Shown here: one piece after another, positions 9,001-12,000 of the stretch
How positions within the stretch are numbered: the stretch's first letter is position 1
Layout of the letters: each line of letters begins with the position of its first letter
Origin: a virus
Taxonomy: Duplodnaviria; Heunggongvirae; Uroviricota; Caudoviricetes
Virus record (IMG/VR): IMGVR_UViG_2541047502_000019
Length of the DNA: 12,137 nucleotides
Direction: 5' to 3' (one strand)
Program-made: the position numbers

Positions 9001-12000
9001 AGCCAGTTTCATCGCAGTTTCAGGACTGACATAAACGTCTGTCCGGAACAGCCCATCAGTATCAACGGCATCCCCGGTTATCGGGGTGGAAGGATTCTCC
9101 AGTGATTTACTTCTGAACAGAGCATCAAGCAGCACGCGTCCCCCTTCTGGCCATAGCCAGTGCGCCCACCAGCAGTAAACCGCCGGACAGCATCAGAGCC
9201 GGAGCCATACCAAACTGCAGGTAAAACCCGCACGTAAGCAGGCCAAAACCAGCCAGCCCGATAACATCAGCAATTAGTGATTTCATAGAATTAAGAGAGC
9301 ATCGTCCGGATCAAGAGATGAGAGGAAATCGTCGGGTTCTTTGAGCATTGCCCGACCGATCGCCATAATCAGCGCAACCGCACCATCGATTTTGTTTTCC
9401 GCCTGCTCCTTGACAGGCTTCACCACATCATCGTTACCCGGAATGGTTTTGCCGACCACGTTGCCGATACACCAGGTCATGATGGGATTGCCGTCATGAT
9501 GAAAGCGCCCCGATTCAATCGCCGCTTCCAGCTCTTTCATCGGATCGGACATGTTGGTGTAGTTCTGAATGATGGTGATGGGGTTCAGGTCTTCATCAGC
9601 AAGGTCATGCGACAGCCCGGTCGCCCCGAAGGGGTCGATGGGTGACTCACTGACCGGGCTGATTTTGTTCGCCGCTTTGGCCTCCTCGAGGATGTACCGA
9701 TAATCCACCTCCGCACCAGCGGTAACAGTCAGAACGCCCATTTCCACCCATTTCTGAAAGCGTTCGGCTGTCCGGCGATCTTCATTTTTCTCGACGCTGT
9801 ACACCGTGTCATACGGTACCCAGAAACGCGGGGCCACACTGTAGTAATGCGTTTTACCGTCAATCTCGCGGGTATAAAGTCGCGCCATGCTGTTCATATC
9901 CAGCTTACGCGCCAGGTCAAAGGCCAGAATGCACGGCTGCCCCTCGAACTGCTCAAGGGTCAGTGATTTATCCTCGCAGCTCTGCCAGCTCACCAGGTTG
10001 AAATACGCCGAACGCGCCGACACCCAGATATTGAGGTGTTTTGTTTTAAAGACGTTTGCCAGACGGGCGTTATTTTTCGCACGCTGCTGCTGACTTAACA
10101 AAAATTCGCGATAAACCGACACGCCAATATTTGGATTGGCTTTTTCCAGCACCTGCGGGTCGATCCAGTCGTCACCTTCATCAACGGTATAGATGATCCC
10201 GAACAGTTCATCGTTGGGTACCGAACCGTTGAGCATCTCGATAACTTCCCGCCGCTTGTCGTAGCACGGCCCCTCAATGTTGTACCCGGCGGTGGTGATG
10301 GCCCACATCAGTGGCTGACGTCGCGCCCCCATCCCGGTAAGCATCGTGGTATAAAGCGCATCGGTGGCGTGCTCGTGATATTCATCCACCACCGCACAGT
10401 GGGGTGATGAACCATCACCAGGGTTACCGATCAGCGGTTCAAACCGCGCACCATCCTCCGGACGGTTCATGTTTGAGGCGTTAACCTCAATCCCGAACGC
10501 TTCCGTCAGCATGGGTGTGCGTTTACACATCAGTCGTGCCGGACGAAAGACTTCCCATGCCTGTTTCTCCGTCGTGGCACCGGAATACACTTCCGCGCCG
10601 AACTCGTTATCACAGGCAAAACAATACAGGGCGACACCGGCAGAGATTGCCGATTTGCCGTTCTTACGGGGGATTTCGGTATACACCTCCCGGAAGCGGC
10701 GCAGCCGGGAGCCTTTATTGACCCAGCCAAACGCGCAGCAGATCACAAAGAGCTGCCACGGCTCCAGCGTGATGGGCATCCGTTTGAATGCCCACTCACC
10801 CTTGGTGTGCGGCAACAGCTGAATAAATTTCGCGGCCCGTTCAGCCAGGTCCTTGTCGAAGCGGTAACGAAACGACTTACTTTTTTCCGCCATCAGGTCA
10901 TCAAGATGGCGCTGGCAGGCCTGAATCACAAACTGGCAGGCCACAATCTTTCCGCGCACGACATCACGGGCATACTGATTTGCAGCATTTACGTTGGGGT
11001 AAGATTTCCGGCTCATGATTCGATAATTTTCAGAAACGGGTTAGTGGCTTTCTTCTGCCCCGCCAGGCCAATCAGACGCTGGCGGCTGCTGGGGTCGAGT
11101 CCGAGCATTGCCCCCGTACTGCTCATCTCGGACTCCTGTTCTTTTTTGGCGGTCAGCTCCGGATTTTTGACCATGCCGCCCATTGCACCGGTGATGGTGT
11201 TGCCCTGTCTGGCAATATTTTTCACGGCACGTCGCCAGAACTCATAGGCCACGCACCACCGCTCAAGCACCGCGAGGTCAGTCACGCACAGCAGGCCCTG
11301 ACCGCAGAGTTCTTTGGTTGTCAGTTGCCACATGATCGTGGCGAGAGGGAGATCTTCTTCAGCGAACCACTCCGGTGGCTCAACACCTTTGATGGGCGTA
11401 AAAACAGGTTCATCTTTGTTCAGGGCTCGCTTGCCGGGGTTTCCGGCCAGCGCCTTGCGCGCCGTTGGCTTGGGGCGACGCCCGGAACGCCCCGCCGTTC
11501 CAGCCATATGCGGCACTCCTGGTTAAATTTCATTTTTCGCGGGTATAAAAAAACGATGGGGCGGGCAGTCCGGAAGACGTCAGGTCACAGGGATTTGACC
11601 CGCCCCTCCCCTCTGGCAGTGGGAACTGGTTCTTACTTCAGCCGTTCACGGGCCGTCTTCGCCTTATGACACGGCCAGCACAGGCTCTGCAGATTGCTGT
11701 CGGCATCAGTGCCGCCATGCGCTTTAGGGATGATGTGGTCAACGGTTTTCGCCTCGCGCACCACACCGGCACGCAAACACAACTGACACAGGCCTTTGTC
11801 ACGCTTTAGTACACGCCCCCGGATAACATCCCATTTCGAACCATAACCGCGCTGGTGAACCGCCCCGGAAATCCTGGAGACTAAACTCCCTGAGAAAGAG
11901 GTAAACAGGATGACTAAAAATACTCGTTTTTCCCCCGAAGTCCGTCAGCGGGCGATTCGTATGGTTCTGGAAAGTCAGGATGAATATGACTCACAGTGGG

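Follow-up and report, generated by a model that had tools for sequence, protein, structure and literature searches.

An IS629/IS1203 insertion splits the HNH endonuclease gene, the last gene before cos, in an SfV/SfI-like thrW-proA prophage of Escherichia coli O157:H7

HK97 gp74, a small protein encoded beside cos and an HK97-type terminase, is reportedly a terminase-associated HNH protein (Kala et al. 2014; Moodley et al. 2012). HNH proteins have been counted among the parts of phage packaging machines (PMC5304195, which cites Kala 2014 and Quiles-Puchalt 2014), and in HK97 the cleavage of cos by the terminase large subunit (TerL) is promoted by GP74 (PMC9410871, after Kala et al. 2014). HNH genes adjacent to cos and terminase have been classified, Group 1 being the nicking endonucleases in which a zinc ribbon at the N-terminus (CxxxxC plus CxxH or similar) precedes an HNH domain with two CxxC pairs at the C-terminus (Xu & Gupta 2013, PMC3592412), while gp74 belongs to Group 3, which is without the N-terminal zinc ribbon (PMC3592412). 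In the Shigella phage SfI the corresponding gene is gp62 (equivalents in SfV, SfII, SfIV and ST64B), which is the last gene before cos and is directly followed by terS and terL. The second known component of the locus described here is IS629/IS1203, an IS3 family element of ~1.31 kb with orfA and orfB that is the most abundant IS in O157:H7, inactivates prophage genes such as stx2, and occupies lineage-specific sites used in typing (PMC10758439). An SfV-type prophage was found in one study to be typical of tir 255 A-allele O157:H7 (PMC10758439).

The stretch of DNA analysed here (hereafter the window; 12,137 nucleotides in full) derives from a prophage that lies at tRNA-Thr (thrW) beside proA in E. 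coli O157:H7, has its own integrase, combines a Mu-like contractile tail with HK97-type head genes, and resembles the Shigella phages SfV, SfI, SfII and SfIV. Its HNH gene is the same gene as SfI gp62, and SfI DNA is 95% identical over the remnant and the cos region, but the gene is intact in SfI whereas in the window it is split by an IS after codon 43. Compared by description with HK97 gp74, the window's protein shares the position beside cos and terminase but falls in Group 1 rather than Group 3, and in sequence the rejoined protein appears closer to HNHE of Geobacillus virus E2 (PDB 5H0M) than to gp74. The inserted element is the same 1310-bp IS3-family element that produces other IS629/IS1203 pseudogenes in O157:H7 (e.g. 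stx2); in this case it has hit the packaging HNH gene of an SfV-like thrW prophage. We consider it highly probable (roughly 0.88) that an ordinary IS629/IS1203 transposition split the last gene before cos of this SfV/SfI-like thrW-proA prophage, so that no intact HNH protein is made and packaging would be defective. Coordinates of the features are collected in Table 1.

Table 1. Positions in the window of the features discussed in the text
Feature	Position	Strand	Remarks
Second IS629/IS1203 copy, 3' end	1..364	+	same orientation as the copy at 11856; right inverted repeat ends at 364
Tail tape measure gene, cut after codon 479 of 611	362..1801	-	stop codon from IS terminus
Terminase large subunit, HK97 type, intact	9283..11016	-	Pfam TerL_ATPase and TerL_nuclease
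Terminase small subunit (P27 family), intact	11013..11507	-	Pfam Terminase_4, 76 bits; PGAP CDS in MB9-1 (L004 13414-13908)
HNH-terS intergenic region with cos	11508..11632		SfI genome record ends map to 11557/11558
HNH endonuclease C-terminal remnant	11633..11855	-	73 codons + 1 nt + stop (11633-11635); both CxxC pairs and the H-N-H residues
TGG, one of the two copies of the 3-bp target duplication	11853..11855		TGG on both sides of the IS in MB9-1
IS629/IS1203 (IS3 family), 5' end	11856..12137	+	left inverted repeat at 11856, orfA ATG at 11910, runs off the window

The phage-derived part of the interrupted gene spans 11636-11855 and is closed by a TAA at 11633-11635 on the minus strand. DNA alignments with SfI, vB_EcoM-720R4 and 118970_sal3 show phage homology running unbroken from terS through cos into the HNH gene and ending after ...CCGCGCTGGTG, and from 11856 onwards the sequence is the left inverted repeat of the IS (TGAACCGCCCCGG..., also given as TGAACCGCCCCGGAAATCCTGGAGA...). 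The minus-strand translation from 11905 to 11633 in the HNH frame reads HQRGYGSKWDVIRGRVLKRDKGLCQLCLRAGVVREAKTVDHIIPKAHGGTDADSNLQSLCWPCHKAKTARERLK, in which CQLC, DH, N and CWPCH are visible, providing the His...Asn...His residues and two CxxC pairs. Pfam PF01844 (HNH) is complete in this remnant of 73-74 residues (positions 1-47 of 47, 61 bits, E 1e-16). An earlier note on this DNA had described a terminase-associated HNH gene interrupted by an IS, with the breakpoint at 11855/11856, 73 residues remaining and the catalytic core intact in the phage-derived part. The breakpoint and the length prove exact in the phage alignments (73 codons plus 1 nt), and the identity of the gene and the integrity of its core agree with the full-length PF01844 match, the adjoining terS and terL, and the IS beginning at 11856. 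The span given there, 11633-11880, holds as far as 11855, but the 25 nt from 11856 to 11880 are IS inverted repeat, in frame with the HNH gene but not of phage origin. An assembly artefact can be discounted for the junction (window 11600-12137), which is 100% identical in 20 independently finished, complete O157:H7 chromosomes.

The window itself ends inside the IS, and only 282 nt of this copy (and 364 nt of a second copy at the left end) lie within it; the far side was read in one of the 20 genomes with the junction, that of MB9-1 (O157:H7; L004), which is base-for-base identical to window 365-12137. The 282 nt are 100% identical to the start of a 1310-bp element in MB9-1 that has the inverted repeats TGAACCGCCCCGGAAATCCTGGAGA and TGAACCGCCCCGGGTTTCCTGGAGA and TGG on both flanks. 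In size (~1.31 kb for IS629/IS1203), repeats starting with TGAAC, 3-bp duplication, and orfA/orfB with a -1 frameshift, the MB9-1 element agrees with IS629/IS1203. The open reading frame from 11910 matches Pfam HTH_Tnp_1, the N-terminal domain of IS3-type transposases, and PGAP names the product IS3-like element IS1203 family transposase, with programmed frameshift, and an AL1L pseudoknot is recorded; copies of IS629/IS1203 number in the thousands across E. coli genomes. The element at 11856 is oriented opposite to the phage late genes. Just past its far end in MB9-1, outside the window, lie the first 43 HNH codons with their own ATG, and in silico removal of the IS and one TGG from MB9-1 restores a 351-nt open reading frame. 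Both pieces of the gene are annotated by PGAP in MB9-1 as pseudogenes flanking the IS, the C-terminal one as 'HNH endonuclease, incomplete, missing N-terminus'. The N-terminal region and start codon, which the earlier note held to have been replaced by IS sequence, are thus both absent from the remnant, but in MB9-1 they are displaced by 1.3 kb rather than replaced.

The empty site provides the reciprocal evidence: at least 40 further complete genomes, most of them of O157:H7 from cattle, have the rejoined 687-bp sequence without interruption and with 100% identity. These observations are best explained by transposition of IS629/IS1203 between codons 43 and 44 of a 116-aa HNH gene, leaving a 3-bp TGG duplication, and such an insertion parts the N-terminal zinc ribbon (CxxxxC...CxxH, with the native start) from the C-terminal HNH nuclease domain. 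The insertion is thus simple and lineage-specific. Since the window ends inside the IS, we infer this for the window's own genome from its identical siblings. Further out in MB9-1, past the end of the window, the prophage carries the lipoprotein gene iss (increased serum survival, bor-like), which has the lysis genes on one side and the 5' piece of HNH on the other and runs on the strand opposite to the late genes (L004 16223-16516).

The length of the original gene is settled by the empty-site sibling genomes at 100% identity. The SfI homologue (gp62, YP_009147512.1) is 351 nt or 116 aa long, with MPPRTPKACRVRGCRHTTTDPSGYCESHKSEGWKQYKPGQSR preceding HQRGYG..., and a 116-aa HNH open reading frame is also present in phage 720R4 and in E. 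coli O39:NM; once rejoined, the window's protein is identical to SfI gp62 except for 2 of its 116 residues. Over residues 1-115 the full-length protein matches phrog_144 of PHROGs ('HNH endonuclease'), and its closest solved structure by sequence is the Geobacillus virus E2 HNHE (5H0M), with E 1e-11; this alignment extends to the very first residue, and the N-terminal motifs C-x4-C and C-x2-H are conserved in it. The rejoined protein accordingly carries C9-x4-C14 and C25-x2-H28 followed by CQLC...CWPC, which corresponds to the zinc-ribbon HNH proteins of Group 1 (PMC3592412), while the window's remnant alone is without the zinc ribbon. Codons 44-116 of 116 are in the window, and what the remnant is missing is the zinc-ribbon segment and the start codon: aligned with full-length phage HNH proteins, as the earlier note had proposed, it falls 42-43 N-terminal residues short of its 116-aa relatives, and no homologues begin at the residue matching 11855.

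Two database records might suggest a naturally short form of the HNH protein. The vB_EcoM-720R4 record (L002 1634-1984) annotates 61 aa, but the full 116-aa open reading frame is present there and an internal start was chosen; the 118970_sal3 record (L003 1640-1762) annotates 40 aa, but the gene has a 1-nt alignment gap, and this copy may be frameshifted. Because the 720R4 frame is full and the sal3 gene gapped, neither annotation is evidence for a short form. In E. coli O39:NM F8704-2 (L005 5033-6724), which has a related prophage, an IS3-family element lies 128 bp upstream of the intact 116-aa HNH gene, an independent IS event in the same neighbourhood.

Whether either half could still yield an HNH protein depends on the start codons that remain. 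No in-frame ATG, GTG or TTG occurs between the upstream stop, which lies inside the IS, and the first CxxC; the first in-frame start codon is a TTG at 11782 that encodes the Leu of CQLC and so lies within this motif. This agrees with the earlier note, according to which the remnant had lost its start codon, and leaves no alternative in-frame start that would cover the CxxC motif. The weak, non-canonical codons ATT, ATC and CTG do occur above the CxxC, none of them with a well-spaced Shine-Dalgarno sequence. The remnant is therefore not translatable as a functional protein. A crude consensus scan of both strands, which gives a weak negative, turned up nothing resembling a sigma-70 site in 11400-12137 or over the IS region of MB9-1. 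The N-terminal fragment in MB9-1 would encode 56 aa, comprising 43 native and 13 IS-encoded residues, and has no catalytic domain. With a C-terminal piece that has no start and an N-terminal piece without the catalytic domain, no intact HNH protein is possible, and a translatable HNH open reading frame is not found in this gene, which is split by the 1310-bp IS and annotated as pseudogenes. At the DNA level, a word-11 blastn search with the remnant found one place per chromosome, i.e. no second copy of the HNH gene in the IS-bearing chromosomes. In the phage gamma HNH enzyme a 76-aa C-terminal fragment retains some activity and still nicks DNA, while a 61-aa fragment does not (PMC3592412), and by analogy the 73-aa domain might not necessarily be dead were it expressed by an unconventional route.

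Downstream of the split gene the packaging module is intact. The end of the SfI record aligns to 11558 and its beginning carries on from 11557, where the very first base is the one mismatch. This places cos (11557/11558) between the HNH stop, 75 nt away, and the ATG of terS (11507), 50 nt away. The only sequence relative of TerL in the PDB is HK97 TerL (6Z6D, E 1e-24), and the PGAP annotation of the identical MB9-1 locus includes a prohead protease of the HK97 family as well as portal and major capsid proteins. The gene thus has the setting of a terminase-associated HNH gene, as it adjoins cos and the terminase genes and co-occurs with an HK97-type TerL and head genes. In such a system cos cleavage by the terminase would depend on stimulation by the neighbouring HNH protein, and without that protein DNA would be neither matured nor packaged; packaging could be rescued by HNH protein supplied in trans or by precise excision of the IS. 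Given the HK97-type TerL, a cos located 75 nt from the HNH stop, and the role of GP74 in HK97, we infer on sound grounds that the prophage would be defective in cos cleavage and packaging, the requirement being taken by analogy from HK97 and the cos phages of staphylococci and lactococci. Since cos, terS and terL are intact, the prophage DNA could in principle still be packaged by a helper phage.

It is unlikely, in our assessment, that the HNH protein is dispensable and packaging unaffected, or that the insertion acts instead mainly through a polar effect on terS, terL and the head genes that follow. The requirement for HNH comes from other phages rather than from the genetics of SfV-like phages, and HK97 TerL and procapsids package linear DNA in vitro without GP74 (PMC9410871). 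Against dispensability, the step that GP74 promotes is cos cleavage, which makes the packageable ends from concatemers (PMC9410871), and the order HNH-cos-terS-terL is conserved in SfI, SfV, SfII, SfIV, ST64B and E. coli relatives. As to polarity, the IS lies between the late promoter/lysis region and all packaging and head genes, and the crude consensus scan revealed no promoter-like site below it. Late transcription in lambdoid phages, however, is antiterminated by Q and normally reads through terminators. Since the IS separates the lysis region from all the packaging and head genes and is in antisense orientation, polarity may nevertheless occur, and could count for as much as losing HNH itself.

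A similarly low probability attaches to the disruption being transient, with IEE promoting precise excision of IS629 and restoring HNH in a subpopulation, which would make the prophage conditionally competent. The insertion is clean and has the 3-bp duplication, IEE is reported to promote IS629 excision in O157 (PMC9943667), and IEE-mediated IS excision is reported to restore lacZ in O121:H19 (PMC9397093); on the strength of these two precedents reversion of the HNH insertion is conceivable. The insertion is, however, present in 20 finished genomes from several studies and countries, indicating that it is stably inherited, and the window's genome has a further lesion, in the tape measure gene.

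This second lesion lies at the left end of the window, where another IS629/IS1203 copy joins the tape measure gene. The left copy differs from the 3' end of the MB9-1 IS at 1 of 364 nt and matches IS1203 copies genome-wide. In MB9-1 the tape measure gene is uninterrupted (611 codons), and the two sequences part exactly at 364/365; the left junction between IS and tape measure gene occurs in no complete E. coli genome of RefSeq. As this IS629 truncates the tape measure gene, the prophage copy in the window is probably tail-defective too, whatever the state of HNH, and the HNH lesion is therefore not its sole predicted defect. The window, an 11.5-kb phage segment (365-11855) between two direct IS629 ends, looks like a short-read contig broken in repeats. 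A related prophage in E. coli O121 WL1277 (L009 1561-4709) has an independent insertion of an IS3-family element in its tape measure gene, at a different position ~70 bp away from that in the window, with both halves annotated by PGAP as pseudogenes.

The presence of a second IS629 in the same orientation also bears on whether an IS-mediated deletion or rearrangement removed the 5' part of the HNH gene from the genome, which is what 'replaced' in the earlier note would literally mean. The far side of the IS is out of view in the window, which ends inside it, and IS629 is described as causing deletions in O157 (PMC9943667). MB9-1, however, identical over 365-12137, has the complete 1310-bp IS, the TGG duplication and then the N-terminal 43 codons, and the same junction is found in 19 further complete genomes, which makes such a loss quite improbable and supports simple insertion of IS629/IS1203 instead. 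The two direct IS629 ends do offer a substrate on which recombination from IS to IS would remove the module of packaging, head and tail-tube genes. It is very hard to credit that the IS629 pair bracketing cos, terS, terL, head and tail-tube genes (365-11855) acts as a composite mobilisable or deletable unit, or that the HNH insertion is an off-switch resettable by IEE, with a prophage that marks a lineage of bovine-biased O157:H7 kept locked in its host chromosome and its cos usable by a helper phage.

The split of the HNH gene is already annotated in RefSeq, as the PGAP pseudogenes, and all components of the locus are of known kinds; this is an ordinary pseudogene. A literature search found no paper that names this insertion site or that joins IS629, O157, prophage and HNH. 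The insertion adds one more O157:H7 prophage gene to the list of those inactivated by IS629 and has little significance beyond this bookkeeping. It could serve as an IS629 typing marker, and strains with the insertion, such as MB9-1, TB21-1 and F8092B, and strains lacking it, such as TX 265-1 and FRIK2533, could provide a natural pair of HNH knockout and wild type for examining the requirement for HNH in cos cleavage of SfV-like phages. By analogy with the cos phages discussed above, it predicts that the SfV-like thrW prophage would be non-packaging in one sub-lineage of O157:H7.
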